From: Chiloscyllium plagiosum
Taxonomy: Eukaryota
DNA: 64,000 nt
Direction: 5' to 3'
NCBI RefSeq assembly: GCF_004010195.1
Contig: NC_057751.1
Coordinates: 6,250,598-6,314,597 of the forward strand
This document shows positions 11,261 to 52,629 of the stretch, piece after piece. Below the pieces are notes generated by a model. It made no database searches. It saw only the letters and a list, made by a program, of their open reading frames with translations, and was not told the origin of the DNA. A program made the position numbers and the translations under genes. How positions within the stretch are numbered: position 1 is the first letter of the stretch; each line of letters begins with the position of its first letter.

Positions 11261-11456
11261 TTATGATAGGTTCTGTATTAGAATTTCGTATAATTTATTT
11301 TTAAAAATTGAATTGCCTTGATTAATTGATGTTAAGAAAAATAGAGCCAAAATGCAGATCAGATAAGACAGTAAACAGAAACAGGAAGCTGCATTTTCTC
11401 ATTCTTTTTGTAAAAATGTAATATTTGTGATGATTCATGAAGGATGCTCTACCATG

Positions 11457-11664
11457 GAGAAAGTGAGGTCTGCAGATGCTGGAGATCAAAGTTGAAACTT
11501 TATTGCTGGAACAGCACAGCAGGTCAGGCAGCATCCAGGGAACAGGAGATTCGACGTTTCGGGCACAGTTTCCTGAAGAAGGGCCTGTGCCCGAAACGTC
11601 GAATCTCCTGTTCCCTGGATGCTGCCTGACCTGCTGTGCTGTTCCAGCAATAAAGTTTCAACTT
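11457..11664. mobile_element. Fold-back mini-PLE (Neptune-type pLTR) with 15-bp TSD
   Basis: TSD ggatgctctaccatg (11442-11456 and 11665-11679). 32-nt tail at 11457-11488. Perfect 80-bp inverted arms at 11489-11568 and 11585-11664 with a 16-nt spacer. Confidence 0.92.
11570..11603 (+). ncRNA. Minimal hammerhead ribozyme, intact core
   Basis: UUC CUGAAGA A GGGC-CUGU-GCCC GAAA CG UC GAA. Predicted cleavage after 11600. Confidence 0.85.
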
Positions 11665-11894
11665 GGATGCTCTACCATGACTTACGTCAACTTTTCTTTC
11701 ATAATTGTCCACACTTCAACTAATTTGTGACGCACTTGGTGTTTTGGTGCCAGGTTCATGCAATTGTATGGTGGGAGTTGAAGTGCTCACCATTGTTGGG
11801 CCTCATCTGCTGACACCATACTTAAAATCCAGTTTTGCAGAACTTCTGATGCTGCAAGCCAGGAACTAGCCCTTACTCTATGGACCTGCATGGT

Positions 11895-13900
11895 TTGAAA
11901 TGGTACAGAAAGGGAAGGTGGTGCCCTGTTTCTCCAACAAGGATCTGGCATGTTTCAAAAATATGGAGTGATCTTTTCTGCAGACTGCCAAACAAGACCA
12001 AACGACTAGATGCAGGCTCTAGTGATTGCTACAAGGGCAGCCAGGTGGACCTCATAGAATATAAATTCCTCAATAGGGGCTGTTAATCTGATCCGGTCCC
12101 TGGCTGACAGATAGAAACAGGAATAGGCAAAAACAATGACTGCAGATGCTGGAAACCAGATTCTGGATTAGTGATGCTGGAAGAGCACAGCAGTTCAGGC
12201 AGCATCCGAGGAGTAGGAAAATCGATGTTTTGGGCAAAAGCCCTTCATCAGGAATAAAGGTGGAGAGATAAGTGAGAGGAGGGTGGGGAGAAAGTAGCTT
12301 AGAGGAGGCCCAGGACCTCCATGTCCTCGGCAGAGTGGGAGGGGGAGTTGAAATGGTGGGCCACGGGGTGGTGTGGTTGATTGGTGCGGGTGTCCTGGAG
12401 ATGTTCCCTAAAGTGCTCTGCTCGGAGGCATCCAGTCTCCCCAATGTAGAGGAGACCGCATCGGGAGCAATGGATACAATAAATGATATTGGTGGATGTG
12501 CAGGTAAAACTTTGATGGATGTGGAAGGCTCCTTTAGGGCCTTGGATGGAGGTGAGGGAGGAGGTGTGGGCGCAGGTTTTGCAATTCCTGCGGTGGCAGG
12601 GGGATGTGCCAGGGTGGGATGGTGGGGGGCGTGGACCCGACCAGGTAGTCACGGAGGGCACCAGGCAGAAGATGATCCCATGGTTTTGGCCATTAGTGAA
12701 TTAATCAAAATGCACAGACAGATTCAACAAGAAGCAGGTTTATCAAATTTACCTTCAGTAAATTGGACTGAAGGATCGAGGAGTCTTCCAACGTGATCAG
12801 TTCCATGCTGGCTCAAGTATGCATGTGTCAAGCTGCCTATGTGGAGAGTTGGTAACTCGCTTGGAGGCCAAGGTCTGGTACACTTGGTGTTGGATATGTG
12901 TACAAAATTGCACTTCATTGCTGTAGCCATTGGTGCTCAGCATCAATGGAAAGATGAGAGGAGCCTCAACCTCACTCCTGGTGCCCTTTCCTCTCAGAGA
13001 GATAGACTGCTGTTCATCAAGATACAGATAGAGGACTAGCCACACACAAACTCTCCAAAAGCTTCCCCTCAAGACACCCCAGAGCTGGCCAAATCCTTTG
13101 CCTCCCACTGCCTGTGATACCAAAGCCTGCAGAAGTGCAAGCTGAGCCTGTATCTGGCAGGACTTTCTCTGCAGGCCTGGTGTCTCGAAATCTAGACACC
13201 CTTGAGTACGACCAGACAAGTCTTGGAGGTCAATGACAGAGCAGATTCTTTCCCCCTGCCCTCCACCCTGGACTGCACTTAGATGTAGAATGAGAACAGG
13301 AGGGACACTTGACTGTAAATAATCCTGTAGTTTCAGAAAGATAATACTCACTGATAGTCTTGAAATATGAGTTGTTATCTTTTTGTAACTGTTCAGCCTG
13401 GTTATGTTGGACTTGTTTAATATATGCGCATCCTCCTTTGACATCCCAAGGATGAAAGAAGTTGTCATGGACAAACATTGTTCATTCCTTGCAAGCAGTT
13501 GAGTCCTTGAGTGCTGACAGCATCTGACATGATGGATCCTTAAACCATCATGTTAACGACTGCAGCCAAGACGTTGCACTCCAGTGTGGAAAATGCTGAG
13601 GCTATGTGCATGTGCAGGGATTGTGGAAGAGGCTTCTGTGCACAGCAGAGCCATACTTAAACACTGTGAGGGGACAGAAGGAATTAGTGATAGTTCCACA
13701 CATTTGTGCAGATCATGTTACATTCTGTCTTTCAGCTTTACGAAGGAGAGCATTGCCATTCAAGGCTAGAAGGTGCACAATGGAAGTTTTGCATCTCCAC
13801 TCTCCCTTACAGCCCTGAGGTCTACCAAGATAAGCTGCACAAAGCACAACTTCTCTTGGGTTAAACACTGTCGTCAAGGGCGGTCGCGCATTGCATTGCA
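11895..13900. mobile_element. Highly decayed PIF/Harbinger element with convergent ORF remnants, interrupted by a Neptune PLE
   Basis: Plus-strand VPCFSNKDLA near 11920 resembles the Myb/SANT start APRFSD.DL. Minus-strand VHDNF...QAE...SKCS at 13230-13480 resembles transposase HDAF...AE.RYN...KCS. Boundaries uncertain. Confidence 0.4.
12129..12660 (-). mobile_element. Neptune-type PLE 3' fragment (Cys linker, GIY-YIG endonuclease, pLTR)
   Basis: GTSPCHRRNCKTC...FTCTSTNIIYCIHCSRCGLLYIGETG...FREH...PVAHHFN. The pLTR has a degraded hammerhead at about 12221-12254 (GAAACG changed to AAAACA). Confidence 0.9.
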
Positions 13901-14124
13901 ATTTCCAAAATCTATGTGAATTCTGAAACATTGAAGGCCAAATAATTATTGGAAGTGTGTAAAGGAGTGCCTTGACAATTGTGCACAACCTTTGTATCGT
14001 GAAGGATTACAATGCACAGCTTTCAAATTTCAAATGCCATGAAAGTTACCTAACCTCAGAGCTAGATAATGTTCCTGCCTTGTTCCTGATGCTGTTGCTG
14101 TCTCCCAAACTTCACAGTTTAGAT

Positions 14125-16426: not shown

Positions 16427-17031
16427 TGTGATGATGCTGTCTCTTTATGTTGTCCTCAGTTTCTTTCAAGAGGCGTTGTAAAATCAGGGGTACTGAAATG
16501 GCTAACAGACACTGCCAAAGTTAACAATCAGAGGAGGCCTTTAAAACAGTTGTCCAATGAAAAGTGAGTGGTCAGTTCTCCCAGTTCAGGTTTTTTTCTC
16601 ATTGGTTTAGTTTTTTAACAGGGAGCCAGAAACTGCTGGTAGCAGAGAAAATGTTACAGTGAAAAGAGGTCCCATGCTTCAACAGAGGCCTTACCTGATT
16701 TTTCTCTCTGAAATCTTTCCTGCCTGTAAGAACCTTTGTTTGAATTTAACTTTTGCCAAGGGGTGTGTTTTTTGGGATGTTGTGAGAATTGGAACAGCTC
16801 CTTCGTTCAGTTGCAATAGAGTCGGTTGGGTTATCAAATAAGTTATGTTATTCTAAATTCTGTTTTCTTTTGTTTGTGTTTCATCTGTAGTGTTTACATA
16901 AATTCGAGTGGTTTGACAAGCTGTATCACTCCTGGAAAATTCACTATATATTTCCTTAAAGAAAAATAAAAAGTTCGGGTCTGGCCCACCTTCTGAAAAC
17001 ATTTTGAAGGAATCTGGCCTGGTCCATAACA
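16427..17031 (+). mobile_element. Solo LTR, family A
   Basis: tgtgatgatgctgtc...tggcctggtccataaca, with internal cagttctcccagttcagg and ttttgccaaggggtgtg shared with the other copies. Confidence 0.8.
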
Positions 17032-17196
17032 GAGTGCAATGAAAACCATAATAAGACACTTGAGAGTGTATCAGTTTTGGATCCATTGTCTGACCATCAA
17101 GTTGGCATTCTTCAACCGTAATCAGTATTGTGTGTAACAAGGCAAAATCTATCTTTATTACTCAGGTGAATATCCCAAGGAATTCATGACTTTGAG

Positions 17197-19055
17197 CCAT
17201 TGTGTTTTTGCTGTAGAGAAAGAAATGGAGGCGAGAGAACTTAGGGAAATAAATATTGAAGTTTTGTTAACAGTTCACATTACAGAAGAGGAAGTATTGG
17301 AGGTCTTAGAAAATGTAAAGAGGGATAAATCTTCTGGACCTGATCCAGTGTATGCCAGGACTTTGTGGCAAGTTAGGGCGAAAATTGCAGGGCCCCTTGC
17401 AGAAATATTTGTGTTAGGTGAGGTGCCAAACGGCTAATGTTATGCCTTTGTTTAAGAAGGGATGTAGGGAAAAGCCTGGGAACTATAGAGCTGGAAGTCT
17501 GACTTCAGTGATGGGTAAGTTGTTGCAAGTGATTCTGAAAGATAGGATTTACTTGCATTTGGAGAGTCAAGGAATGAATAGGGATAGTTGGCATGTTTTG
17601 TGTGAGGGAAATCCTGTCTCACAAACCTAATCAAGACTTTGAATAAGCCACCAAGAAGATTGAAGAGGACAGAGTGGTAGATATTGATTACTTGGAATTT
17701 AGTAAAGCCTTTGACAAGGTTCCGTATGGTAGACTGATTAGTAAAGTTAGATCACATGGGATTCAAGGTGAACTTGCCTCATGGCCAGGAGACCGAGAGC
17801 AATGGTGGAGGGTTGTTTTTCAGACTGGAGGCGTGTGACAAGTGGTATTCCACAAGAATCCATGCTGGGTCCACTTTTGATTGTCATTTCTATGAATGAA
17901 TTAGGTGACAATGTAGAAGGCATGGTCACTAAGTTTGCAGATGAAGCCAGGATTGGTGGTATAGTGGGCATTGAAAAAGGTTATCAAAGATTACAAAAAG
18001 ACCTTGAACAATTGGATCAGTGGGCTGAAGAGTGGCAGATGGTGTTTAATTTGTATAAATGCGAGGTGTCACATTTTTGTAAAAGAAACAAAGGGCAAGA
18101 CTCATACAATTAAAAGTAAGGCCTTGGGTAGTGTTGGAAAAGCACAGCATGTCGGGCAGCAAAAAAGGAGCAGGACAGTCGATTTTTCGGGCATAAACCC
18201 ATTCCCAATGAAGGGCTTGTGCCTGAAATATCAATCTCCCTGTTCCTCGGATGCTGCCTGACCTGCTGTGCTTCTCCAATGCCACATTTTTTACTCTGAC
18301 TCTTCAACATCTGCAGTTCTCATTTTCTACTTGGGTACTGTTATAGAACAGAGATATCTTGTGATTCAGGTACACAATTCTTTGAAATTTATATCACATA
18401 TAGATGAGGTGGTTAAGAAGGCACATGCTTGCCTTCATTGCTTAGATCTTTGCGGATACCAGTTGGAACGTTATGTTGAGTACTTAAAGGATGTGGGTGA
18501 GGCCTCTTCTGAAGTGTCTAGTTCAGATCACCCTGTTGTAGGAAGGGTATTATTAAGCTGGAGAGGATTCAGAAGAGGTTTACCAGGATGTTTCTGGGAA
18601 TGCAAGATTTGAATGATAAGGAGAGGCTGGATAGGCTAGGTTATTCTTGACTGGAGCATGGGAGGTAGAGAGGTGACCTTACCGAGGTTTATAAAATCAT
18701 GAGGGGTATGGAGAGGGTTAAAGGTAGGTGTCTTTTCTCTAAGATGGGGAATTTCAACACCTGGGAGCATAATTTTTAAGTGAGAGGAGAAAGATTTTAA
18801 AACATTGTGAGGGGCAATTTTATTTACACAGAGACTGATTTGTGTGTAGAATGAAGTTCCAGAGGAAGTGGTGCATGTGAGTACAGTTACAATGTTTAAA
18901 AGACATTTAAATAAGTATGTGAATAAGAAATATCTGGAGGGATATGAGCCAAGCATTGGCAGGTGGAACTAGTTTGTTTTGGGATAATGATTGGAATGGA
19001 TTGACTGGACCAAAAGGTTTGTTTCCATGCTACATGATTCCTGACTCTATGACTG
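17197..19055 (+). mobile_element. CR1 LINE ORF2 (RT) to 3' UTR, interrupted by a fold-back PLE
   Basis: DKSSGPD, PLFKKGCREKPGNYR, FSKAFDKVP, VTSGIPQESMLGP, KFADE, plus the 3' UTR. Many stops and frameshifts. Confidence 0.92.
18136..18329. mobile_element. Older fold-back mini-PLE inside CR1, 13-bp TSD
   Basis: TSD cttgggtagtgtt / cttgggtactgtt (18123-18135 and 18330-18342). Minus arm 18136-18200, plus arm with tail 18201-18329, starting with a decayed hammerhead attcccaatgaagggcttgtgcctgaaatatcaat. Confidence 0.85.
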
Positions 19056-19849
19056 TATAATGTAGAAAAATGAATAACACCATTTACAAACATTCCTGAC
19101 TTTTGGAAGATGTATCTTTTGCAACCATAACTAATTGCCTTGTTACAAGAGGCTTTAGTCCAAAAAAAGTTTTGTTCTTGCATTGACAGCCACAAGTAAT
19201 GTAAAACCAATTAAATGACAGTATGATTTGGCTAAATATTATCTTTGCCTGATATTATTGCATTGTGTGAGGATTGATACAGAATGGAGCTGATCCACAG
19301 ATCTCATCTTTGTCTCTTTGTGTGTGTACATTAATGTGCAGTCTTCATCCGACCGGATTGAAGTCAGGGTTGAGAATAAAGTGGAAACACACTGATGTAA
19401 GAGACTCAATTTTTTTAAACCATGATTTGAAGACCTGTTCAGAGCACCATTATCTCGTGTACAGAGATCCAAGAAGATGCGTGCCACAACTGCAGCCTAC
19501 AGCTATTAAAAAGCCATGTAATTCCAGACATTTCGGCATTCTCACCCGACAATGGAAGTGTGCTTGCTCCTCTTTTCGTAGATCATATCCGACCCCTTCA
19601 TCACTTGCAGAAATTCCTCAGTCCTTCAAACTTCCAGCATCTGTAATATTTCACCATGAATGCTATTGAAATGCTTTTGTTTTTTTTCTGTCCTTTCTGC
19701 TTTTTGAAATAATTATTTAAGAAGAGAGTGTAACTCAAGTGATTAGGGGTATTACTGGTTTGTTTGGCTTTCTTTCTTGCCACATGATGATGTGATCTGT
19801 ATTGAATGAACCTTGTTCAATCGTTTCAGCTGCTCATGTGTGCACTCTA

Positions 19850-20804
19850 TCTCCTCCTCCATCTAATGGGCAATTCGTTCGCTATTCCTTAATGATTGTA
19901 TCAGTGATCAAATAAAAATGTAAAAGTTCAATGGAAACAGTTAAAAAATATCAAAAGATTTCCAAAATTGATTCTGTTTTCTGCACCTCATGGGTTCTGA
20001 TATTACATCTTCCAACCTGCAATTGTCTGTGTGAGTTATGGGAGGGTACCTGTCAGAACTACTCCTTCTCTGATCTTGAATACTTTACATTCATCAAAAT
20101 GTGGGAATACTGTTTCCGAATTCTTCCATGATCATCATTTCTCTTGCATTCTCAAACATTTTTCCAAGCTTTAGTGGTCTAAGCCATCAATCCTACGGCC
20201 TATCTTTTTCACTTGCAAATTCTACAAATGTTTGGTTCGGTTGTTTATTTGTTATCTGAAATTTTAACTTAAAAGCTTCAGAGACAAGCTCGTAAGATTG
20301 ATACAATCTTTTTGTAAGCTTCATAATCTGCATTTTTTTTAACAAACTGGTGTGCATAGTCATAACTGTATGTGCCAAAGCATTTAGTAATATTAAGGTC
20401 CGAACATCTTTTGGTGATTTCATCTGCTCAGTCACCTTCTCAAATGAGATGCAATACTTTTTGACTTCATGCTTAATATATTCAAGCATCAATTGCATAT
20501 TTTTAGTTAGATCAATTCCCTCATCGGAATGAGAATCATTGCCTGAGCTATGATCTCTTCCTTCTTTCTCCAGAGCACCCTAAGCTGCTGTATGGCCAAC
20601 TCGTGTTAATTAATTACCCGATCTGCTTGAAATTTATAAATTTCCATCTTTCTCTGTTTTTCTTCTAACTCAAGTCTTCTTTTTTTTCTCTCGAAGTCAA
20701 ATTTGTTTTTCATTTCTCACTGCATCTAATCCCAGCTACAAGATTCTAATTTCAGGTTTCATTTCTTCCTATTTTCAATGTTGTGTCAACACTTGAAGCG
20801 TTAT
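19850..20804 (-). pseudogene. Decayed Gypsy (Gmr1-like) gag, C-terminal part
   Basis: EVKKYCISFEKV...PKDVRTLIL...SYELVSEAFKLKFQ...KQPNQTFVEFASEK matches the gag pattern YF..FEK.A...WP...AYELVPEAYRQKFR..K...QTYVEFAREK. Lower boundary approximate. Confidence 0.75.
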
Positions 20805-23470
20805 TGATGAACTCAGGATGTGGATAGGTACATGAGACTGGTCAGAAACATGGTGAAGGGAGAGACATTCAGCTTAATGTGCCAGGGTACAGATGCTTTA
20901 GGTGGGACAGAGGTGGTGGAAGGAGGGGAGTGGGAGTTGCATTTTTGATTCAGGCAAGTATCACAGCAGTAGACAGACATCAAATAACTGAAGGATCATC
21001 CAGTGAGGCTTTGTGGGTGGTGCTAAGAAATAAGAAAGGGATGATGACATTATTGAAGTTATACATTAGGCCTCCATTAGTCAACTGGAATTAGAGGAAC
21101 AAAGATTGGGGAGACTTGCAGCAACAATAGCATTGTCATAGTAACTTTCCTAACATCGATTGGGACTGCCAGAGCATTAAGGGCTTAGATATGGTGCAAT
21201 TTGTTAAGTGCATTCAGGAAGGTTTCTTCAATCAATATATAGAGGATCCGATTCAGGAAGGGGAAAAAGCTTGACCTACTCTTGGGAAATAAGACAAGAC
21301 AGGTGACTGAAGTGACAGTGGAGGAGCAGTTTAAGATCAGTAACCGTAGTTCTATTAATTTTATAATAGTTATGGAGAGGGACAAAATTGGTCCACAGGA
21401 CCAAGTTCTGAATTGGGGCAAGGTAAATTTTGATGAAATTAGACAGGAGCTTGCAGTGGTTGACTGGAATAGAGGGAGGCCTTTGAAAATCAGATAGCAA
21501 GAGTTCAATGTCATTTTGTTCCTGTGAGGGTGAAGGACAGGATTGGCAGGGATAGGGGACATTGGATGACAAGGAATATTGAGGCTTTGACCAGAAAAAA
21601 GGAGTAGACATGGCTCAGGTACAGGCAGCTGGGATCAAGGGGAATCCCTGGAGGTATACAAGGGATACAGGAGTTTACTGAAGAAGGAAATCAGAAAGGT
21701 GAAAAGGGGGCATGAGAAAGCCCTGGCTGAGAAGATTAGGGAGAATCCAAAGAGGTTCTTTAAGTATACCAAAGGAAAAAGAATAACTGGAGAGACATTA
21801 GGACCCCTCAAGGACCAAAGTGGACATGTATGTGTCGAACAGTAGGAGATGGCCGAGGTCCTCAATGAATATTTCTCTACTGTGTTTACTGTGGAGAAAA
21901 ACATGAAGACTTGGGAACTTGGGGAATTTAGTGGTCATGTCTTGGGGACAGTCCGTTTCATAGTAGAGGAGGTGTTACATGTATGAGAATGTATCATATA
22001 TGTCCCCTGGTCCTGACCAGATATATCCAAGAACACTGCAAGAGGGTAGAGAATAAATTGCAGGGGCCCTGGCTGATATGTTTGCATCATTGTTAGCCAT
22101 GGTGAGGTCCTAGAAAATTGGAAGCAGTGAATGTTTTCCCCTTATTCAAGTAAGGCTGAAAAGAAAAGTCTGGGAACTATAGACCAGTAAGCCTAACATC
22201 TGTGGTAGGTAAATTACTTGAGAAGATTTTGAGAGATAGGATATACATGCATTTGCAAAGATAGGGTTTGATTAGAAGTAGTCAGCATTGCTTTGTTAGA
22301 CCAGGCCTCAAACATTTGTTCGAGATCTTTGATGAAGTGACCCGGAAGGTTGACGAGGGCAGAGCAGTAGGCGTAGTCTATATGGATTTCACTCAGGCCT
22401 TTGATACGATTCCACATAACAGGCTGCTCTGGAAGGTTAGATCACATAGAATCCAGGGGGAGCCAGCAAATTGGATGCACAATTGGATTGATGGTAGGAA
22501 GCAGAGGGTCAAAGTGGAAGGATGCTTGTCGGACTGGAGGCCTGTGACAAGTCGAGTGCCTCACAGGTCAGTGTTGGACACATTACTATTTGTTATCTAT
22601 ATCAATAATTTGGAAGAGAATGTACAAGGCATGATTAGTAAATTTGCAGATGATACTGAAATAGGCAGTATTATGGACAGTGAGGAAAGTTATCAGAAAT
22701 TGCAACAGGACTTTCATCAGCTGGAGATGTGGGCTGAGAAAAGGCAACTGGAGTCTAATAGAGATAAATGTGAGGTCTTGCATTTTTGGAAGTCGAATCA
22801 AGGTAGACGTTTCATGGTGAATGGTAGAGCCTTAAGGAATGTAGGGGAACAAAGGGATCTTGGAATTCAGGTTCACAGTTCTCTGAAAGTGGAGTCACAG
22901 ATGTACAGGGCAGTGAAGAAGGCTTTTAGCACACTGGCCTTCATCAGGGCATTGAGTATAGAACTTGGGAAGTTATGTTGCAGTTGTACAGGATGTTGGT
23001 GAGGCCACACTTGGAATATTGTGTTCAGTATTAGTCACCTTGCGAGAGGAAGGATGTTATTAAACTGCAAAGACTGCAGAAGAAATTTCCAAGGATATTG
23101 CTAGGACTCAACAGTTGAGTCATAGGGAGAAGTACCTTTTGCTTTAGAGTGTAGGAGACTGAGGGGGCATCTTATAGAGGTGTGTAGGGCTAAGGACATC
23201 AGTTTAAGGTTAGAGGGGAAAGAATAAAAGAAACCCGAGGGGCAAATGTTTTACACAGAGGGTGGTGTGCACATGGAGTGAGCTGCCAGTGGAAGTGGTT
23301 TAGATGGCTACATTAACAACACTTAAAAGGCATTTGGACAAGTGTATGGATGTGAAAGGTTTAAAAGGATATGGGCAGGGAAATGGGGTTAGCATGGATG
23401 GATGTTTTGGTCGCATGGACCAGTTTGGGCCAAAGGGTAATGTCTCTGTGTTGTAGCACTCTATGACTCT
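20805..23470 (+). mobile_element. Long 5'-truncated CR1 LINE (APE endonuclease, RT, 3' UTR), inactive
   Basis: PGYRCFRWDRGGGRRGVGVAFLI (APE); VVYMDFTQAFD, LLFVIYINNL and ISKFADDT (RT, ORF 22268-23002); ctatgactct tail. Confidence 0.95.
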
Positions 23471-23735: not shown

Positions 23736-25008
23736 TGTTGTGTGATCCTAGCTGATATTATTACTGATCAAATCAGATCCCAGACTGAGATCTGGCTTAA
23801 TGGTTCCTTTTGATTGGTTTTAACAATATGATTTCTTACTGAAAAATAAGCATACAATGTTGCAGATTTTGATAAACAGAATAGATCAAATTAAGTACAT
23901 CATGCACCTTTAACAATTTTAAACACACAACAGAAATATCATCCCATTAATCCAAAAATTAATTCATATCCATATAGACCATATAGACAAATTAATTCGC
24001 AGATCCCAAAGTTACCCCTGTACAGTATCCAAAGCTAGAGAAAAGTCTCTTTCTGTAATACCTTGATAGATTTCACTGTGAATTCAACTGTCAGTTTAGA
24101 AAATCTGATAGCCTTTTCCTGGAGCTTTCATATCCCAGAAGATAAATGTTCTGAACTTCAAATAACCTCTTCAGGGTTTTATCCAGATACTTATTGTCTC
24201 GGACTATCGCTAAAGACATGTTGTGGACCAAGTCAAACTCTCTCAACACATTTCAAGAAGGTAACCCAGACTCTAACTTTTCTAGTTGTATTAAGCAGGT
24301 GTAAGGTGGATATTCTAAGAGCGATGCAGCTGGTCAAGTGATTCAGTTTTAAACATAACAGAATTTATTTACACACTGCTGAATAAAACACGAGCAAAAA
24401 AGAAAACAGAGTTTAAAATAACAATGATTTGAAAACCCGATTGACACAATATCCCCTGCAACGTAACAAAGACCTGTTCTGATTTCACGCAACATCCCAT
24501 AAACACACCCCTTGGCAAAAAGGTAAATTCAAACCCAGGTTCTTACAGGAGAGAGAGAGTTTGCAGAGAGGATCAGCTTGGGATCACTAGCTGAAACATG
24601 GAATCGCTTTTGTCCCGGCAGCTTCTCAGGGTCCCCAGCAAAAACTAAACCAAACTAGAATAGTCCCTGAACAGGGAGAACTGACCAGTCCCCTTTCATT
24701 GTAATAGTGTTTTTTTTTAAAATCCAAAAAGCTTTTGCCCCGATTGTTGCCTTGGGCAGGTTCTGTTAGCCAAAATCAAAGTGGTCCATTCCCAGACAAA
24801 TTGGTACCTCTACCTTTTACAACCCCCTTTGAAATAAACAAAGGACAACATAACCCTGTTAAAGGAGAAGCATTGTCACACACGGTACTTTTGTTTTACT
24901 ATTTTCAACTCTGCTCAGGAGCACTGTTTTACGCATTCATCTTCATCCAAACGATATAAAAACAGGTGGAAGGGCAGTTTCCAAAAGGACTACAAACAGT
25001 TTATCACA
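23736..25008 (-). mobile_element. Putative LTR, family B (likely 5' LTR of the gag-bearing element), with a nested family-A LTR
   Basis: On the minus strand it starts tgtgat and ends caaca, and it lies just upstream of the gag ATG. Inferred from position; no second copy to confirm. Confidence 0.35.
24219..24880 (-). mobile_element. Solo LTR, family A
   Basis: tgttgtggaccaagtc...ggagaagcattgtcaca, colinear with 771-1672 and 45712-46342. Confidence 0.82.
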
Positions 25009-25014
25009 CGATAT

Positions 25015-35270: not shown

Positions 35271-35302
35271 ATAAAGTACTCCATTTGATATTCTGTGCCA
35301 CC

Positions 35303-36176: not shown

Positions 36177-38929
36177 TGCTTCCAATTAAACCTGTTGGAC
36201 TATAACCTGGTGTTGTGTGATTTTTAACTTTGCTTTAGTGTAGGAGGAGTGGGTGACCACGACAAGATCAATGTCTTGAAAGGTTTCCTCATGTTTGAGA
36301 AGTGGTACGCCTATATTAAAAATGTTGCAGTGGACATTAAGAGGCTCAGCCTGGAGGGATTCACCTTTGAACTGTCCAAAAGTTTAATTTGTGCAGACTA
36401 CTGGCATACAATAACCGAAACAGTCACATTTTCCCTTTAGCTGTATGGAGATGAAGAAAATTGGACTCACATTTGTGTAGAAACATTCCATGGTCTCCAG
36501 ATGTCTCACAGCATTTTACAGCAAAGGAAAGACTTTTTAACTGCAGCCACTGCTATTATTTTGGAATCACATCAGCAAACTTGAACAGAGCAAACTCAGT
36601 AACAGCAATTTGATAATGACCAAACGTTCTGCTTTTTTGAGTCAATATTGACCAGAAGACCAGCTCTCCAGCACAGCAATGATGCCTTTATTTAATATGT
36701 CCTCTAGCAAATAGCACATTGAAGAGTACAGTGTTCCCTCGGTTTTTTCCTCAAGCTTAGTAATGGGATTTGAATCTAGAAATCTGAGCATTAGAAGCAA
36801 GAATACTACCAAGTCAATAACCAGTGATGCTGATTATTGACTGTTTGTCCCAGCAGTGATTGTTTTTTATGTTTTTCCAGCGTATCCCATAACATTCATG
36901 GTCCCAGTATTTCCCTGAAAGGAATGAGCTAACTGATCATATTTTGGGATTGATAACTGATTTCAGGCCAAGAAATGATGTGTGCAATCATTTGTCAGAT
37001 TCTAGATGTCACGTACAATCACTCCGTTGCTCAGTCCCACTGTCTCAACAAAGGCCAGTGGTTTATTACAGTACTGTCATGCAAGTTTTTTTTTTCCTTT
37101 TGAAACAGGGCAAATGAAACCATATTAAATAGTACTGAGAATACAGTGACTACAAAACAGAAGCGTTGCAAAGAAAGGAATGAGGAAAAAATTGACTCGT
37201 CGAATGTGCTCCAAAATTCACAGTAATTACAATAGAAGAGCAGGCCTTTTAGCCTATTGTGCTTGAGTTATTTTGATGTGCACAAGCATTTTCATTTTCG
37301 TGGATTTCACGCTGCAATTCCATGTTTTCCAAAGCTTCTTGGTACTGTTTGAAAGTTAACTGAAATCATGGTCATTGTCTCTGCAGAACTTGGCATATAA
37401 ATATCAAAAAAGGAGCCAATTAGCCATTCATACTGCTGCCGGTTCCTGAAAACAACTGGCTAATTTATCCAATACTCTTTTTTCCTCACACCTTTGTCAG
37501 ATTTTTCTTCAAGTACTTCTCCAATTGTCTTTACAAAGCAACTGTTGAGGCAGTGTCCACTGCCTGTTAAGGCAGTATTTTCCAGATCATATTTCCTTAT
37601 GATGCCTCAGATGCTTCTATCAATCACCTGAATCCTTGTCCTTTGTACATTGACTTTTCCAACATTGAAAACAGTTCTCTTCACTTGCTACATCAAAGCT
37701 GTTCACGATTTTGAACAGATCTCTTTGGAGAACAATCCCAGCTCCCGTAGTCTCATCACATAATTGACATCCCTCATCCCTAGTTCAACTCTTATAAAAA
37801 TCTGCACTCTGGCTAAATCATTCACACTCAAATATTAATGACAGTTCCAAAATGTGCAAGAGCAGAAGAGTGCTTAATAATTTGAGAAATACTTGAAAGG
37901 AAATCATTTATCAAAAATGAGAAGGAAAGGAATAAATTGGGTATATCTTCTGAAGGACTGGAATACACATGAAGAGCTGATCAAGTGACCTTTTATTCTG
38001 TAATTTTATCTGATTTGCAGAGCTCTAAAGGTTCCCTGATTTTAAAAACGAAGTGCCAGGAACATGGTTGGAACCCCAATGCATTGTGGACATTTATGAC
38101 TCGTAATTCTAAAATATCTTTTTAAAAGAGGACTAATGCATGTGAAAATGGTTGTGGATATAAATTAGATGCTGTCTGGAGAGACTGAGAAAGAGAGAGA
38201 GAGAGAGAGAGAACTGCAGAATGTTACATCTGCAGATGCTAAGGGAAATGCAAACAGTACCCTTCAAAGTGAGGAGGAGGAAACTCAAAATAGACTGGAC
38301 TGTGATTGTAAGGACTATTAAAATTACAAGATGTGGATGCCACACCCTCCTCAACAGTAAACATCCTCTGCAGGTTATGCCCCAAACTGCAGGGTCATTT
38401 TGTACTTAGTCAGTGCCTCCACATTGTCTTGTGTACCTGCCTGGTTTGGATTAGCAATCTGTTAAGGTCATAGTCACATAATTATCTCCTTATCACCCCT
38501 CTTTTGCGGGTAAAAGTTGTTTCTCACTCTGAGGACTTGGAGAAAGGCAGTCCATATGCTAGCATAAATTACAGCTTTCTTAAAAGCATTTGAGAAGGTA
38601 CTTTCAGCATCAAATGCCATCTCCTTCCTCTACTGTGCTGTTGAGTGGAATAGTTTCAATATTTTTTGAATTGTACTGGCTACAAAACACTGTAATTTTA
38701 TTGTAAAATATTCCTTAGTGGGAATAGATTAATTTAGGATATGTGGTCAGCATAGATGAGTTGGATCACAGCTACTGTTTCCATGCTGTATGTCTCCATG
38801 TCTCGATGACTCTGAGACCATTACGTCTACTGTCTTCTTCTCATAGAACCTCAGACCACACGCATGACATCAGAGTGTTACAGTGCATTCCTGATAGTAT
38901 TATGCAACAAAACAATAATGCTCTGTTTT

Positions 38930-40040
38930 CATGTTCCACCCCCACTAGTCTCCACATTCATGAAATCACGCTCCGCTATTTCTATGATCTCCAGAAGGAT
39001 CCCATCACCCAAACAAATTTTCCCGTCCCCTTCATTGTCGACATTACATAGCGACACTTCCCTCCTTGACATTCTGGTCCACTCCTTCATCACTGCTGTT
39101 ACCTCCTCCCTCCGCACTGTCCAAGATCCCAAACACAACTCGCAGGTGAAACAGCGTTTTTCTTGTATGTGTTTTATTCTAGTTTTCATTATTCGCTCCT
39201 CACCTTGCAGTCTCCTTTACATTGGCAAGAGCAAACACAGGCAGGGCAACTGCTTTGTCTTCCATCCTGTCCACAGCAGTGAATTTGGCCTACAAGTAGT
39301 TTGTTATTTTCATAAGCCCCCTTGCTCTTATGCTAATGTTTCAGTCTTGGGCTGACTGCGTGATCCAATGAAGCACAATGCCAACTTGAGGAACAAAACC
39401 TAATTTTCCACTTCAGTACACAATCTGTAGGACACAATCTTGAATTTTACAACTTCAGAGGCTGACCTCAATATATTGTTCTTGACTTTTTATTATATTC
39501 TCCCCAAATGCACCCCTTCTGGGATGGCAAGGTGGCACAATGGTTCGCACTGCTGCCTCACAGCACCAGAGACCCAGGTTCAATTCCAACATTGGAAACT
39601 GTGTGGAGTTTGCACGTCTGCATGGGTTTCCTCCAGGTACTCTGGTTTCCTCCTACAGTCCAAAAGTGTCCAGGTTAGATGGATTTGCCCCGGTAAACAT
39701 TGTCCCATAGTGTCCATCAATGTGCAGGTTATTTGGGTTAACTGCGGTAAATTTGGAGTTATGTGGATAGGGTAGGATTCTGTTTGGAGGGTCGGTGCAG
39801 ACCTGATTGACCAAATGGCCTCTATATGCGCTGTAGGGTTCGACGATTCTGTAATTCCTCATGACTACCACTACTGTGTCTTGGTTACTTTCTTCAGAGA
39901 AATTCTGGAGAAGAGTCATATCAAACTTGAAATGCTGACTCTGTTTCTGTCTCCACTGATGCTGCCAGACCTACTGACATTCTACAGCATTTTCTATTTT
40001 TGTTTAAGATTTCCAGTATCTGCAGTATTTTGCTTTCAGT
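38930..40040 (+). mobile_element. Decayed Neptune-type PLE, interrupted by a V-SINE
   Basis: QDPKHNSQVKQRFSC...RSSPCSLLYIGKSK (GIY-YIG remnant) and pLTR with tail at 39905-40040. Confidence 0.75.
39520..39855 (+). mobile_element. V-SINE (HE1-like), diverged
   Basis: ggcaaggtggcacaatggttcgcactgctgcctcacagcaccagagacccaggttcaattcc...tgtggagtttgcac. Confidence 0.8.
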
Positions 40041-40862: not shown

Positions 40863-41916
40863 CTTCCTGGAGGTTCTATCATGTATCAGTGGCTCCAGGT
40901 ATTACATCAGTTTTTGGACAGCTCTTGTCAGCTTCCTGAGTTCTCTTGTCTCCAAAGAAGATGAAATTAAAATTAGACCTCATGGATCCAAATGGCATGA
41001 TGTGTTGCAAGTGTTTGCATAACAAGACCTCGAAACACTGCTTGCATCTGTCCATATCGAAGTACGATTCAAGACATGTATTGTGTTACACAACATGTCA
41101 AAAATGGATTTGCATCATGCAATTGAGTGGAGGCCAATTCAAATTCATCTGCTTTTCAGACAGGGCTATTAAAATTAACAGCAGAGCAAATAAGTTCTGC
41201 CCATTTATACAATCCATTCCAATTCGGGAGATTGTAAATTCTGCTGCAATGTCAATTAACTGGTGCCAAGCAAACTGGGATTTTAGTGATATCAGAAGAG
41301 GCAGTTTAACAGTTTGTCTTGTTAGAACAAAATTTTACAATTCCAATGCCTAGCCTCTGTAGGAAAGGCATTCCCATCAATCTTGGGCAGTCAAATAACC
41401 AGTATGATTAAACAGGGAGAAAAGATGCAAACAATAACAGATTGTAATGCAACAGTCTGATTTTCTGAACACTGATTTGTGTCTTTGTGTAGCTGCCTTT
41501 TCAGCTTCCTTTGAAAAAAATCCCAACTCAAATGTTATCAGTACTTGACATTCTTTTCTTGAGATTCAAATTCGAAATTATAGAATGCTTGAAATTTCTG
41601 CTGTGAGGGAGGCCATTCATTTCATTGCTTATGCTGCTGTCAGCTTCACTGCGAGAGCTATTTTCATTGATCTTATTCCTTTGGCCTTTACATGAGCATG
41701 TAATGTATTTATTCAGCTTTTTCATTTCCTTTTCAAAACTGTGATTGGTTTGATTTTAATAACCACTTGTGCTCATAATTCAATTTACAACTTCACCTGT
41801 TGTGTAGAAGAAAAATTGCAACCTCCTCTTTGCACAATTGGTAATTTGTAAATATTGTCCCAGTCTGTGCAAATAACCTTTCAATATTAATTCTTTCAAA
41901 CTCTTTCAACATTTTA

Positions 41917-42111
41917 ATAAAGCAAAGAACTGCTGATGTAAAAGGTCTGAAACAGAAACAGAAATTGCTACCGAAACTCTGTAGGTCTGACAGCATCTAT
42001 GGGGAGAAAAGTAATGAAGAGTCACACGAGCTCTGATGAAGAGTTACCAGACTCAAAACTTTCTTCCCGTAACTGTTGAGTTTCACCAGCTTGTTTCTGC
42101 TTTTATTTCAG
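41917..42111. mobile_element. Old fold-back mini-PLE with exact 11-bp TSD
   Basis: TSD tcaacatttta (41906-41916 and 42112-42122). 30-nt tail on the left. Arms ctgaaacagaaacagaaattgct... and ...agcttgtttctgcttttatttcag. Hammerhead remnant ctgatgaagagttaccagactcaaaac. Confidence 0.8.
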
Positions 42112-42399
42112 TCAACATTTTATTCACATCAACTGCTTCCTTGTGAGGGTGTCTGTTGTTCTTCCTGCCTCTGTGTTGCAGGCAAGACCAGAGAAAAATG
42201 AAAATGGACAAGATATGTATCACAAGGAAAGGACAGCAACTTTCTGTTGTAATCATCGTAGAGAAGTTCTGAAACAGGAACTGAGAAAAAAAACGATTAA
42301 AAAGTGTAAAATTGAAGTTCGATGTGGATGGGAAAACTTGCAATGCATAATGATAGATTTTCTGCATAAAGCTATTGGATTGTTCAGTTTTGAAAGTGA

Positions 42400-42915: not shown

Positions 42916-43325
42916 TAATCAAGTTTGTATTGATGTTTTGGAGTTTTGTTTCTTTATAATTGTGAACTGATGAGAAGTTGGCTACTTCACTGAAGTGATT
43001 GCTTTAATAGCGTTCTTGATCATGCACTTTTACATAATCTATGTTTGCATAGGTTTATCCTTCCTATCGTTAAAATATAATGATAATTGTGAATATCAGC
43101 TTCAACTACATAATCTCATGCCTTGTGATTTGGAGAAATTTTCATGGTGAAAGCATGGAAAATAAATATGCTTCATGATTAAACAAATACATTTTGTAAA
43201 TTATCCATATAAAGAACTCCCCATCAGATGTCTCTAACTGAACCATTTATTCAAAGTTTGTGCGAAGATTTGTAGCTCGGGTGCTCGTTGTTGTGGTTCT
43301 GTTCGCCGAGCTGGAAGTTTTTGTT

Positions 43326-43365
43326 GCAAACGTTTCATCCCCTGGCTAGGCGACATCATCAGTGC
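43326..43365 (-). ncRNA. Minimal hammerhead ribozyme
   Basis: GCA CUGAUGA U GUCGCC-UAGCCA-GGGGAU GAAA CG UU UGC. Confidence 0.7.
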
Positions 43366-43886
43366 TTGGGAGCCTCCTGCGAAGCGCTTCTTTGATGTTT
43401 CCTCCGGTGTTTATAATGGTCTGTCCCTCCGCTTCCGGTTGTCAGTTTCAGCTGTCCGCTGTAGTGGTTGGTATATTGGGTCCAGGTCGATGTGTTTGTT
43501 GATGGAGTTTGTGGATGAATGCCATGCCTCTAGGAATTCCCTAGCTGTTCTCTGTCTGGCTTGCCCTTGATAGTAGTGTTGTCCCAGTCGAATTCATGTT
43601 GCTTGTTGTCTGCGTATGTGGCTACTAAGGATAGCTGGTCGTGTCGTTACGTGGCTAGTTGATGTTCATGTATGCGGATTGTTAGCTGTCTTCCTGTTTG
43701 TCCTATATAGTGTTTTGTGCAGTCCTTGCATGGGATTTTGTACACTACATTAGTTTTGCTCATGCTGGGTATCGGGTCCTTCGTTCTGGTCAGTTGTTGT
43801 CGGAGCGTGGCTGTTGGTTTGTGTGCCGTTATGAGTCCTAGGGGTCGCAGTAGTCTGGCTGTCAGTTCTGAGATGCTCCTGATACT

Positions 43887-44432
43887 CCATACATCAGGAG
43901 CATCTCAGAACTGACAGCCAGACTACTGCGACCCCTAGAACTCATAACGGCACACAAACCAACAGCCACGCTCAGACAACAACTCACCACAACGAAGGAC
44001 CCGATACCCAACATGAGCAAAACTAATGTAGTGTACAAAATACCATGCAAGGACTGCACAAAACACTATATAGGACAAACAGGAAGACAGCTAACAATCC
44101 GCATACATGAACATCAACTAGCCACGAAACAACACGAACAGCTATCCTTAGTAGCCAAACACGCAGACAACAAGCAACATGAATTCGACTGGGACAACAC
44201 CACTATCATAGGGCAAGCCAGACAGAGAACAGCCAGGGAATTCCTAGAGGCATGGCATTCATCCACAAACTCCATCAACAAACACATCGACCTGGACCCA
44301 ATATACCAACCACTACAGCGGACAGCTGAAACTGACAACCGGAAGCGGCAAGGACAGACCACTATAAACACCGGAGGAAACAACAAAGAAGCGCTTCGCA
44401 GGAGGCTCCCAAGCACTGATGATGTAGCCTAG
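43887..44432 (+). CDS. PLE ORF C-terminus with GIY-YIG endonuclease; 5'-truncated but still open
   Basis: PYIRSISELTARLLRPL...HKPTATLRQQL...KDP...NVVYKIPCKDCTKHYIGQTGRQLTIRIHEH...REFLEAWH...SIN. No Cys linker precedes the endonuclease, which fits the Poseidon/Penelope type. The mirror copy on the minus strand is frameshifted. Confidence 0.9.
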   Translation, partial: PYIRSISELTARLLRPLELITAHKPTATLRQQLTTTKDPIPNMSKTNVVYKIPCKDCTKHYIGQTGRQLTIRIHEHQLATKQHEQLSLVAKHADNKQHEFDWDNTTIIGQARQRTAREFLEAWHSSTNSINKHIDLDPIYQPLQRTAETDNRKRQGQTTINTGGNNKEALRRRLPSTDDVA

Positions 44433-44452
44433 CCAGGGGACGAAACGTTTGC
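44413..44452 (+). ncRNA. Minimal hammerhead ribozyme with an extra helix II mismatch
   Basis: GCA CUGAUGA U GUAGCC-UAGCCA-GGGGAC GAAA CG UU UGC. Confidence 0.65.
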
Positions 44453-44489
44453 AACAAAAACTGCCAGCTCGGCGAACAGAACCACAACA

Positions 44490-45383: not shown

Positions 45384-45443
45384 GGCATACTTAAACTACT
45401 GGACTTGTGCCTCACAACACACTTCACATTCAACAACCAGATA
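45384..45443 (+). pseudogene. PLE reverse transcriptase fragment
   Basis: Translates as GILKLLDLCLTTHFTFNNQI, matching the PLE RT segment LL..CL...F.FN...Y.Q that precedes motif B. Confidence 0.8.
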
Positions 45444-45497
45444 CCACTATAAACACCGGAGGAAACATCAAAGAAGGGCTTCGCAGGAGGCTCCCAA

Positions 45498-45537
45498 GCA
45501 CTGATGATGTCGCCTAGCCAGGGGACGAAACGTTTGC
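45498..45537 (+). ncRNA. Minimal hammerhead ribozyme
   Basis: GCA CUGAUGA U GUCGCC-UAGCCA-GGGGAC GAAA CG UU UGC. Helix I is GCA/UGC, helix III is ACGU, and the triplet is GUU. Confidence 0.75.
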
Positions 45538-45711
45538 AACAAAAACTTCCAGCTCGGCGAACAGAACCACAACAATGAACCATTTATTTTTCACACTTGC
45601 TTCCAGTTAATACCTAGTATTTTTACTAACATTTTACACTTGAAGTTAGGAATGGAAAGGCAAGTTCAGTTCATTTGAATCCCTGTGCAGTATGTCACTG
45701 TTAGTCTTCCT

Positions 45712-46342
45712 TGTTATGGATCAGGTCAGACCCCCTCAAAAGATTTTCAGAAAATAGCCTAGACCCTAGCTTTTCTCAGTGTTTTAAGCAGATGTACAGT
45801 GGATATTCCAGGGGTGATGCAGCTGGCCCAACCATTTAATTCTCAACAAAAGAAAATTTATTTGCAGGATTACTGAATGAAACACAAACACAAAAGAATG
45901 GTATGTAGAATCACTTAACTATTTAAAAACCCAACAAACTATCCAAACTTAATGATGCTGTTCCAAATTCCTGCAGCAATCCCCATAAACACCTCTTGGC
46001 AAAAAAAAGGTAAAATCAAACACAGGGTTTTACAAGAGAGAGAGAGATGGCAGAGAGATTGAGCCTGGAACTTTTGAATCAGTTCTTCCATGTCGCCATT
46101 TCTTTTGGATTCTCAGCTAACAATTGATCAGCAGCCTCAAAAAACAGCCAGGCTACTAAAAACCAAACTGAACCAGAGAAAAGCTGAGCTGGGAGAACTG
46201 GCCATTTCCCTCTTTGTTGTTTAAAAACTTAAAAGCTTCTTCAAGTTGATCAACCCAGATATTTCAGAATCTATGCATTTACGAACCCTCTGAAGAAAAC
46301 CAAGGACAACCTGACCCTCGTGAAAGGAGTAGCATTGTCACA
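45712..46342 (-). mobile_element. Solo LTR, family A
   Basis: tgttatggatcaggtcagaccccctc...agcattgtcaca, with flanks tcct / tgct (3 of 4). Confidence 0.85.
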
Positions 46343-50089: not shown

Positions 50090-50345
50090 TTGTGTTTCAG
50101 ATATTTTCAATTAACCTGTTCCAGATGTTGTTCTGAACCTCAGGAGTAGTTGGGACTTAAAACCAGGTGTCCTGGTTCTGATGAAGGGATGCTGCCACTT
50201 TGCCACAGGGGCTCCCAATTGTGTTTCAGATACTTTTAATCAACCTGTTCAGAGAGGTCATGATACTCCTCTGGAGCAGTTGAGATTTGAACCCAAACTT
50301 CCTGGCTTAGTGGCAGGGACATGATCGCTGTGCCCCAAGAAGCCC
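50090..50345 (-). repeat. Two diverged tandem 129-bp units with tRNA-like heads
   Basis: ttgtgtttcagata recurs at 50090 and 50219. The minus strand shows A-box-like tggggcacagcg and B-box gggttcaaatc. Confidence 0.6.
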
Positions 50346-51397
50346 ATGAAGTAGTTGTGTTTTACAGTCTGGCAACTGATCAGTACCAGCTATATCTTAT
50401 AGCTAACAAACAATGAGAAATGTTGCTGGGCCCCCTCCCCCTCTCCCTACCTTTCCCTCACCTTTAGTGGTCTGTCTTGCTCTTGATGGGCTTTGAATGT
50501 AACTTATTCAGTTGGAGAACATGGGTGATTACATGGTGAATACATTATGAAATACCACAGTGGTTTGGTGATGGGGGAATAAAAGAAATGTTTGTTTGTG
50601 TGTAAGAGCAGGTCTGACTGTGAAAAAAAACCCAGAAAACTTGCTGGTGTAATCTCCAACTGGAGAAGGTCAGATTGCAGTAGTCAGCTCTTAACCCACT
50701 TATTTTCAGTGGAATTATATCATGCAAATCCTACATTTATATACTTGTAATTGCAATTAGTGCCCCTTTGAACTGTACAAGCCGCCTTGCAAAAAATTAA
50801 TCAGAAGAAAAGCTCATCTGGATGTTCCATGGAAACTGCATGAGCAGACAGCAACTTTTGTCACGTTTGCAGACATGTTGATAGTAATGCCATTTTAAGC
50901 AGGAGCTGGTCAGTATTGTGAACTGAAAATTGTTTCTTTTACAAAAATCTTGACAATCAATGTTCTAATTTTTACAAATGCACATTTTACTGTAATTGCA
51001 GTGCTGCAATATGCAAAGACGACGGTATACAGTGATTAAGGGTACTTACACTCTGAATCTCAGGAGATATTTTCATTAATTTCAAAACCTTGGGCTACAA
51101 CACATGCCCAGAGTAGCAATACCACACTGCAGCAGTTTCACAGGAAGTCATGGGTTGGGAAAATTTCTCCCATCTTATAGAAGTATCAAACTCCAATAGA
51201 CTCAGAAGCAAATTGCAATTGATAAGTGATCAAGTGAAATATAACATTTCTGAATTGAGGACATAAACATGGATCAATGTGATATGAACAGTAGTTTAAC
51301 TGTTTTGGTAGCCTTTTTTTTGTGCAGTCCGGTGGCCATGAGTTCAAGCCTTCCTTCAGACTTGAGCATGAAATTCAAGCTCCCACATCTCTGGGGA

Positions 51398-51572
51398 AAA
51401 CAATAAATGCTGGAGATCACAGAGGATCAGGCATCTTCCATGGGCAGAGAGAAAGAGAGAGACTTGAAATATTGGCTTGCTTTCTCCCTCCATGGAGGGT
51501 GCCTGACCCGTTGTGATCTCCAGCATTTGTTGATTTCAGTACAGATTCCAGCATCTGCAGTAATTTGTTCAG
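51398..51572. mobile_element. Old fold-back mini-PLE
   Basis: Arms aaatgctggagatcaca...tcaggca...tccatgg and ccatgga...tgcctga...tgtgatctccagcattt, with a tail of about 36 nt on the right. TSD acatctctgggga / acaactctggaga (11/13). Confidence 0.78.
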
Positions 51573-52629
51573 ACAACTCTGGAGAGCTGTTCTTCAGAAC
51601 AGAAAGAAAGATTTATAATTATATTGCATCTTTTCAAACTCAAGTGCTTTAAAGCCAATGAAGTACTTTTGAAATGTGGTGATAGAGGTTCTGTCTTATG
51701 ATCAGGTGTAAGCAGTGCCCTGGAGTGTTGATACACAACACTGAGTTCTTCTTGTTGCTTGACAAGCATTCTACCCTTAGCCATTGTGAGAAACGAGCCC
51801 CACTTAATCAATAATTTTCAGTCCGAGTCAAAGAGTTCCGAAGCAGCACATTTATTCGAACATCTTTTAAGATGGGTGGCTCTACGAGGAGAGTTTTTTT
51901 CTGAGGGGTCTCTCGACACCCCGACACTAACCAATAAACCTATCATAAGTGTCTATTTCATTCTATCCCCTTATTTGGTTATTACTTGCGTCCGTTACTC
52001 CTTCACTTGTTAATTCCCTGCACCCAAGCCGAAGCCCATCATACTTATTAATTACCTCACTTGTTTTTCTTTAAATCTGTCTTATTTGGCTGTCCTTGTT
52101 CGTTACAGCCTTCCTGTTATTTTGTCCAATTCCTCTTTTTTCTTTTTTAACCTTCTGACTTCTGAGATCATCCTTTACTATTTTGGTAGTCCAAAAAGCG
52201 GACCTACAAACGATGAGCTTATTGCAAAATGCTTCTTTTGTGGTCAGCTACAACACTCAAAGTTATTTCCCAGCTTAAAACTATTTCTTTAAAATACCCT
52301 CTATATTCGTTAAAGTCAACATACACCTGACAACCTGAAATCTTTCTCTCTCAGTCATCACGAATTATTGGCCATTTGGTTTGGGGGATAAGGGATTTGC
52401 ATCATGTGAACAGCTTCAAGAAGCTGGAGTTTTTCTTTCGATCAGAGAAGGCTAAGGAAAGTCTCATACAACTCTTTAAAACAATTATGGATTTAGATGG
52501 GGGAGGAAAAGAGTAATTGTTTCAAATGATTAAAGACTCAATGAACAGAGAGCACGGATTGTAGGCTATCAGCAAAGGGTTTGGAGAAAATATGAAACAA
52601 AGGTTTTCATGCTACAACACTTGATAGGC

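Follow-up and report, generated by a model that had tools for sequence, protein, structure and literature searches.

In a 64,000-nt window of the Chiloscyllium plagiosum genome (assembly GCF_004010195.1, contig NC_057751.1, positions 6,250,598 to 6,314,597 of the forward strand; coordinates below are those of the window), seven insertions, numbered E1 to E7 in window order, are dead, 5'-truncated Penelope-like element (PLE) insertions of the Poseidon and Neptune types. Their two arms are inverted copies of the same segment, joined head to head, with a tail on one side only. We propose, at a probability of about 0.55, that they arose by dual priming, in which both staggered target nicks prime reverse transcription and the two copies, likely stopping on a shared template, are joined head to head. 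The structure itself, an inverted pseudo-long terminal repeat (pLTR) with a one-sided tail and a target-site duplication (TSD), is not new (Arkhipova 2013; Craig 2021). What is added here is the coupling of the arm 5' ends, the association of clear TSDs with fold-backs (5/7 versus 0/9 single-armed copies) and arm-tail stems in three unrelated families.

Architecture of the seven insertions

E1 lies between exact 15-bp repeats (15/15; 11442-11456 and 11665-11679). Its 32-nt tail (11457-11488, minus strand) carries the 3' strand of a 7-bp stem. The tailed arm (11489-11568, minus strand), a putatively Neptune-type pLTR of family A, starts in hammerhead loop II and is identical to the right arm. 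The right, untailed arm (11570-11664, plus strand) extends 16 nt further at its 5' end, contains an intact minimal hammerhead core at 11573 and shares 94 identical nucleotides with a copy at 849-942. E4 (35919-36239, family B, TSD 9/9) consists of a tail (35928-35968) and tailed arm (35969-36098) on the minus strand and an untailed arm (36096-36230) on the plus strand, with intact hammerhead cores at 36054 (minus) and 36145 (plus).

The left part of E6 (43239-43883, minus strand) comprises a TSD copy (43239-43251), a 36-nt tail (43252-43287), a pLTR with its core at 43362 and the 3' end of a Poseidon-type open reading frame (ORF) with GIY-YIG. Its inverted partner arm (43887-44489, plus strand) is at least 6 nt longer at the 5' end, where it has the parental codons P-Y, and stops at a run of N. 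The right end (45384-45588, plus strand) holds a 60-nt reverse transcriptase (RT) piece, an untailed pLTR (core 45501, end 45575) and the second TSD copy (45576-45588). With 894 N and a further partial tandem copy inside, E6 is not the plain two-arm unit it had been taken for, and its halves are tied together only by the matching TSD and the scaffold.

The remaining insertions are more decayed. E2 (18123-18342, family A, TSD 12/13, mutated core) has an untailed arm at 18136-~18204 (minus), a tailed arm at ~18198-18277 (plus) and a 52-nt extension at 18278-18329. E3 (30616-30821, family C, weak TSD 9/11, degenerate hammerhead) has an untailed arm at 30627-30675 (minus), a tailed arm at 30673-30769 (plus) and a tail at 30770-30810. 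In E5 (41906-42122, family C, TSD 11/11), a tail (41917-41946, minus) and a tailed arm reaching to ~42012 (minus) are separated by a ~20-nt filler from a weak, deleted untailed arm (~42031-42111, plus). E7 (51385-51585, weak TSD 11/13, no CUGA core) has an untailed arm at 51398-51455 (minus), a tailed arm at ~51456-51535 (plus) and a tail at 51536-51572. On re-check, the boundary coordinates of all seven in the preliminary description proved exact to the base, and the outward-pointing 3' ends that it reported are present in every case.

The direct repeats flanking E1, E2, E4, E5 and E6 (13/13 in E6) are matched by at most ~1% of random position pairs, while those of E3 and E7 are reached by 2-4% of random pairs in a narrow search and ~15% in a wider one. 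The reported 9-15 bp TSDs are thus strong in five of the seven and weak in E3 and E7. The unpaired extension is one-sided throughout; its length (32, 52, 41, 41, 30, 36 and 37 nt in E1 to E7) spans 30-52 nt rather than the 30-47 nt first given, owing to E2. Six of the seven are pLTR-only stubs of 175-303 nt, and the fold-back density is about one per 9 kb.

Arm identity is 100% over 80 nt in E1, 130/132 (98%) in E4, 576/598 columns (96%) in E6 and 75-80% in E2, E3 and E7. Inverted arms had been claimed for all seven and are clear in six. The exception is E5, whose right arm is internally deleted: the arm-to-arm alignment (33.5 versus a shuffle maximum of 30.5) is not significant, and the family profile detects this arm only weakly, with E=0.18 in a search of the whole window and 3e-4 when its 112 nt are searched alone. 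A blind scan for short fold-backs returned exactly six centres (E1-E4, E6 and E7), none elsewhere in the window and none in three shuffled windows.

These results bear on whether the inversions could have formed after insertion, by repair fold-back or template switching, or could be assembly artefacts. We consider this very improbable. The location of E6 at an N run and the odd transversion excess on its middle arm would suit it, but the TSDs enclose both arms and the tail, the arms of E2, E3 and E7 show independent decay, all six short fold-backs in the window are PLE ends while no other repeat forms one, and the identical layout has been published in other animals.

The E6 arms differ at 22 positions; with homologous proteins and a third pLTR as guides, the polarised changes on 43887-44489 are mostly transversions toward A or C (~6/8, versus ~1/5 on the left arm), possibly reflecting sequencing error beside the N run. 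At 45384-45445 RT codons directly adjoin pLTR-proximal sequence; either a template jump or the internal loss of about 1 kb would account for this join. The E4 arms differ twice, each time by an A-to-G change on the tailed arm (35969-36098) relative to the other arm and the copy at 2885; two cases are too few to call RNA editing.

Family identity of the insertions

The PLE origin is supported by linkage of pLTRs to ORFs, by GIY-YIG pieces and by predicted minimal hammerheads. Several distinct pLTR families are present, as described before: A (E1, E2), B (E4), C (E3, E5, E7) and D (E6); E1, E2, E3, E5 and E7 align as one broad group (families A and C). A pLTR is joined to a PLE ORF for family D in E6, for family A at 12126-12640 and for family C at 29329-29925 and 38924-40039, and no ORF link was found for family B within the window. 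Proteins of Chiloscyllium punctatum and Hemiscyllium ocellatum share 88-91% identity with the E6 ORF piece, and the best of them has RVT_1 upstream; RT sequence within the insertion DNA itself amounts to just 20 codons, after the N run in E6. Pfam gave no match in the two GIY-YIG pieces of the window, their relatives score GIY-YIG near the Pfam cut-off, and the best set in the Atlas has GIY-YIG at 0.96 for 12302-12700. The C-terminal GIY-YIG with a CCHH motif on an RT ORF, which marks endonuclease-bearing (EN+) PLEs, is present.

The clades of these elements are told apart by the presence or absence of a CX2-5CxxC linker upstream of GIY-YIG (PMC8557442). The 12126-12640 region has a CX4CxxC linker and is 89% identical to a shark RT-EN protein, so family A is probably Neptune-type, a label that here does not separate Neptune from Nematis; the linker, CHRRNCKTC, occurs in 12302-12700 and in a relative, P0045, whose RT lies upstream. 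E6 has no Cys among the 45 residues upstream of GIY-YIG, its relative P0002 has none forming CX2-5CxxC, and this linker-free GIY-YIG points to the Penelope/Poseidon clade. With a Poseidon E6 and Neptune-type families, both main EN+ lineages make the fold-back structure. Three other searches added nothing: the PDB returned designed tetratricopeptide repeat proteins only, and the family A motif had three metagenome matches over ~25-28 nt only, both judged chance, while the family B motif had no viral match.

The minimal-hammerhead descriptor matches six times in the window (0.025 expected), always within pLTRs: in E1, E4 (twice), E6 (twice) and the copy at 849. The insertions had all been called hammerhead-bearing. 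A complete predicted descriptor is found in three of the seven (E1, E4, E6), whereas the core is mutated in E2, E3 and E5 and E7 lacks the CUGA core; only E4 and E6 have cores on both arms. An Rfam search gave no hammerhead match, and its miRNA matches merely reflect the hairpins.

Single-armed copies

Profiles and BLAST across the window identified 16 pLTR-bearing loci, of which seven are fold-backs and nine single arms. With nine of 16 loci single-armed and the layout already published, the fold-backs do not form a distinct recurrent class with one fixed layout, as had been suggested. The single arms include a young, tailless family A copy (849-1178, minus) reaching ~235 nt upstream of the hammerhead; a tailed family A copy (12126-12640, minus) joined to the GIY-YIG piece with the CX4CxxC linker; a family C copy with ORF C-terminus, pLTR and tail (29329-29925, plus); a tailed family C pLTR (39905-40039) downstream of a decayed GIY-YIG ORF piece (38924-39460, plus); and a family B copy (2880-3034, plus) that ends a few bases into the tail. 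Others lie at 291-402 (minus), 19550-19660 (plus, weak), 61245-61343 (plus) and 62975-63085 (minus). A full tail is present in seven of the nine, one ending a few bases into the tail and one (849) being tailless, a count to be read with old tailless arms being harder to detect.

One TSD search applied to both groups found a strong TSD at none of the nine single arms (best score 8, at 849) and at five of the seven fold-backs (Fisher p=0.005; counting the 849 copy as having one gives 0.035). A candidate direct repeat at the 849-1178 copy (12/14, p ~0.04) overlaps the inner end of that copy. Inverted arms upstream of 10 single pieces scored 16-25.5, two just over the shuffle maximum, compared with at least 60 for clear fold-backs; for the three long copies this test was not placed at a known 5' end. 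The pLTR at 39905 is immediately preceded by an inverted piece of ~10 nt, which was dropped as a snap-back trace because the ORF piece lies further upstream and the site is probably not a 5' junction. An isolated 22-codon Poseidon-type ORF piece at 53360-53425, where no pLTR or TSD was found, is ORF-only and stands outside the 16 loci.

Junctions and 5' ends

No junction is common to any two elements where relatives were compared (E1 with E2; E3, E5 and E7 with each other). This bears on a further explanation, that the hairpins are a non-autonomous MITE-like family (miniature inverted-repeat transposable elements) whose complete units are multiplied by a DNA transposase or, in trans, by PLE enzymes. 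The insertions suit such a family in being small, non-coding, palindromic, TSD-flanked and as dense as about one per 9 kb, but since junctions differ between relatives, amplification as units, which the preliminary description had entertained, finds no support here. The arms also miss one terminus, TSD length varies from 9 to 15 bp, a longer single-armed copy matches the E1 arms exactly, and at other places in the window GIY-YIG ORF pieces are attached to families A and C. We regard a MITE-like family as highly unlikely.

Which arm owns the spacer was judged with parent-like copies and homologous proteins as guides. In E1, the longer untailed arm comes with one extra T and no microhomology. 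The untailed arm is ~5 nt longer in E4, with 3-nt microhomology, and 6-9 nt longer in E6, where the spacer includes the parental P-Y codons and no microhomology is visible; in E5 it is longer and accompanied by the ~20-nt filler. In E2, E3 and E7, the tailed arm reaches further 5'. Thus, the untailed arm owns the spacer in four of the seven, including the three youngest. Short junction microhomology is present in E2, E3 and E4, and the E4 junction falls in a small parental inverted repeat. In the E5 filler (42013-42033) the hammerhead core and stem II seem to be repeated in part.

The 5' ends of the two arms lie within ~55 nt of each other in all seven insertions, and within 9 nt over ~600 nt in E6. 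Paired arms have closer 5' ends than shuffled pairings (p=0.024 with arms only, 0.004 when single-arm lengths are added). Two independent truncations therefore fit poorly, and the earlier picture of two cDNAs that simply join leaves out this coupling; a template shared by both, or a fold-back, is required for it. In every short element except E4, five in all, the longer arm begins at or within the hammerhead and before its cut site. Since the arms reach 5' of that site, hammerhead cleavage was rejected as the origin of the 5' ends. Poseidon from Anolis carolinensis (PAc) also works with uncleaved RNA (PMC11167929).

Coupled 5' ends would be explained directly if a single nick primed at the tail end, the cDNA snapped back and was copied, and the endonuclease (EN) then cut the hairpin at the tail boundary and joined it to the second target end. 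The microhomology in E2, E3 and E4 agrees with this scheme, Craig 2021 ascribes the tail to EN-mediated resolution (PMC8557442), and the Drosophila virilis EN requires the tail for recognition (cited in PMC11167929). The scheme predicts that the loop always belongs to the tailed arm, whereas it belongs to the untailed arm in E1, E4, E5 and E6, so snap-back from the tailed cDNA alone is insufficient; mixed spacer ownership fits two primed copies. The lack of visible microhomology in E1 and E6, the use of the inner site as an RT start in vitro (PMC11167929) and the existence of a tailless single arm (849) also speak against it, and we judge it unlikely.

Somewhat less probable again, in our view, is self-priming on antisense RNA, giving a hairpin intermediate that is then integrated. 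It was put forward for head-to-head palindromic junctions (Arkhipova 2013; PMC3846280), would couple the ends while letting either arm own the loop, and suits the inverted repeat at the E4 junction. It needs base pairing at the junction, which is not visible in E1 and E6; the junction sites differ among relatives; purified PAc carries out target-primed synthesis (PMC11167929); and ends lying at two RT start sites are not themselves explained.

A predicted arm-tail stem near the arm and tail ends

Perfect arm-tail stems are predicted in E1 (7 bp), E4 (9 bp) and E6 (7 bp), whose pLTRs are mutually unalignable. In these three, the tail complement starts 7, 10 and 7 nt past the untailed end and ends 18-22 nt before the tail end. 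Shuffling gave p=0.035, 0.004 and 0.046, respectively, and 5e-4 combined. In the older elements, an alignment reading puts the distance from the untailed end to the homologous segment at 5, 9, 13 and 27 nt and that from the segment to the tail end at 17-25 nt. Taken over all elements, untailed ends lie 5-13 nt before the 3' strand of the stem in six of the seven, and tail ends lie 17-25 nt after it in seven of the seven. Read by eye, with start-site marks not visible, the PAc RNA letters of Fig. S1 contain a 7-bp inverted pair, and an AC-rich run ends ~11 nt before its 3' strand.

It is tempting to speculate that Poseidon and Neptune share an RNA geometry built on a 7-9 bp stem between the tail and the pLTR. 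A dimeric enzyme bound there would start two cDNAs on the same RNA, one at each target nick: one ~5-13 nt inside the loop, the other ~17-25 nt beyond the stem. We hold this only tentatively and think it may well be wrong. If true, one concerted double-priming reaction would have left the TSD, the one-sided tail and the head-to-head hairpin with its matched 5' ends as its footprint. It would need no second-strand step of its own, in contrast to target-primed reverse transcription of long interspersed nuclear elements (LINEs).

A proposed dual-priming model

In the dual-priming model, one cDNA would be primed at the tail end and the other 30-40 nt inside, both within a single insertion event, and the nick stagger would become the 9-15 bp TSD. 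The arm-tail stem may position both RT start sites. The coupled 5' ends could arise in either of two ways, which cannot be told apart in the final sequence here. Either two copies are made from one RNA, whose start often lies just upstream of the hammerhead, and are then end-joined, or one cDNA folds back on itself and the other captures it. Priming at a single nick, in most cases at the tail end, would leave one arm and no clear TSD.

Dual priming, already offered by the preliminary description, accounts for the junctions better than does a snap-back confined to the tailed copy, although it is still an inference. The ends of the arms also sit at the RT start sites reported for PAc in vitro, where two start sites bound the tail, both target strands are cut and extended, no target homology is needed and a dimer is predicted (PMC11167929). 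A literature search found no published dual-priming model for PLEs; subscription papers, outside its scope, may hold one.

Several points weigh against dual priming and the shared geometry. No intermediate is seen, and the seven cases come from one window and were picked by a TSD-seeking reader, which biases the TSD contrast; the single arms are mostly old and some of their 5' ends uncertain, so that TSDs may be hidden. D. virilis copies without terminal repeats carry TSDs (PMC2377424), and an inverted-pLTR copy without a TSD has been reported (PMC3846280). PAc showed no between-strand difference in start site (PMC11167929), so published data do not force one tailed and one untailed end. The 5'-coupling test uses hand-set lengths for old copies and leans on the N-split E6. 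As for the stem, it was noticed first and tested afterwards, its pairing is broken by mutation in E2, E3, E5 and E7, the untailed end of E2 (27 nt before it) falls outside the cluster, and the alignment shows no compensatory changes within family A/C.

Other repeats in the window

An abundant old repeat family occurs at 5026-5861, 1177-1672, 16543-17033, 24219-24880, 45707-46342 and 58629-59208, and its copy at 5185-5861 contains 44-45 nt inverted repeats. An RVT_1 fragment lies at 22268-23002 (E=1e-15), with similar LINE-like pieces at 3123, 6020, 14844, 18346 and 42411 that we take to be CR1-like. At 52692-53118 there is a local tandem duplication of ~230 nt with a perfect 36-nt repeat inside. 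An open frame of 128 codons at 20193-20579 (minus) may be a gag piece of an LTR retrotransposon.

Comparison with known systems

In L1 twin priming, both target nicks prime and an inversion inside a TSD results, but there the two parts stem from RNA segments that adjoin without overlapping, whereas in E1-E7 one segment is copied into both arms. MITEs are short, non-coding elements with inverted repeats reaching both termini, a fixed TSD length and a shared internal structure. E1-E7 are likewise short and non-coding with inverted repeats and a TSD, and in annotation such PLE stubs can pass for MITEs. The one-sided tail, TSDs of 9-15 bp, distinct junctions and retroelement origin exclude them from the class of MITEs and non-autonomous DNA transposons.

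The closest systems are the published EN+ PLE units. In the inserts described by Arkhipova 2013, inverted pLTRs form the two ends and one of them carries a 31-bp tail; the TSDs are 8-10 bp long and the head-to-head junctions palindromic (PMC3846280). Craig 2021 gave such a scheme for PLEs generally, called its origin unresolved and named the mechanism of tandem and inverted PLE insertions an open question (PMC8557442). A curation guide treats inverted pLTRs and 3' extensions as ordinary for PLEs (PMC8969392), and copies flanked by inverted repeats are the commonest D. virilis form (PMC2377424). Like E1-E7, the units of Adineta Pen2/Pen2a (PMC3846280; PMC8557442, Fig. 2 legend) and D. virilis Penelope (PMC2377424) have a head-to-head, inverted, 5'-truncated copy, together with a 30-40 bp tail at one end, an 8-10 bp TSD, a near-palindromic junction and a small arm offset. 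Unlike them, six of the seven insertions here are pLTR-only stubs, at about one per 9 kb and with TSDs of up to 15 bp. The published models for these units invoke antisense self-priming or EN resolution, not dual priming.

The hammerheads resemble the minimal ones of metazoan PLEs (PMC4209133) in having a core without helix III, a palindromic loop and a short helix I; sharks have no match in the excerpted text of that paper. Cervera and De la Pena 2014 found opposite-strand hammerhead pairs 100-700 bp apart in Schistosoma and ascribed them to truncated PLEs (PMC4209133). Non-LTR retrozymes (bioRxiv 2026.07.22.740005) are also non-coding, hammerhead-bearing and related to PLE pLTRs. They form head-to-tail tandem units with a hammerhead each, whereas E1-E7 are head-to-head and single; at least two head-to-tail units are required and no tandem repeat was found at these loci, which rules this class out.

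In PAc (PMC11167929), the ORF ATG lies at the start of hammerhead stem II and an AC-rich loop at the inner site, both as in E6, while the distance from ATG to inner site is 111-118 nt (main start) versus 69 nt in E6. In the excerpted main text of PMC11167929, neither inverted arms nor TSDs are connected with the two starts: 'duplication' has no match there, and 'inverted' occurs only for a blocking group. Thousands of such short stubs in a shark genome would amount to a large natural record of the PLE reaction, and the rules suggested here (TSDs that go with fold-backs, a spacer that may belong to either arm, 5' ends that are coupled and starts fixed by the stem) are testable in the existing PAc in vitro system.

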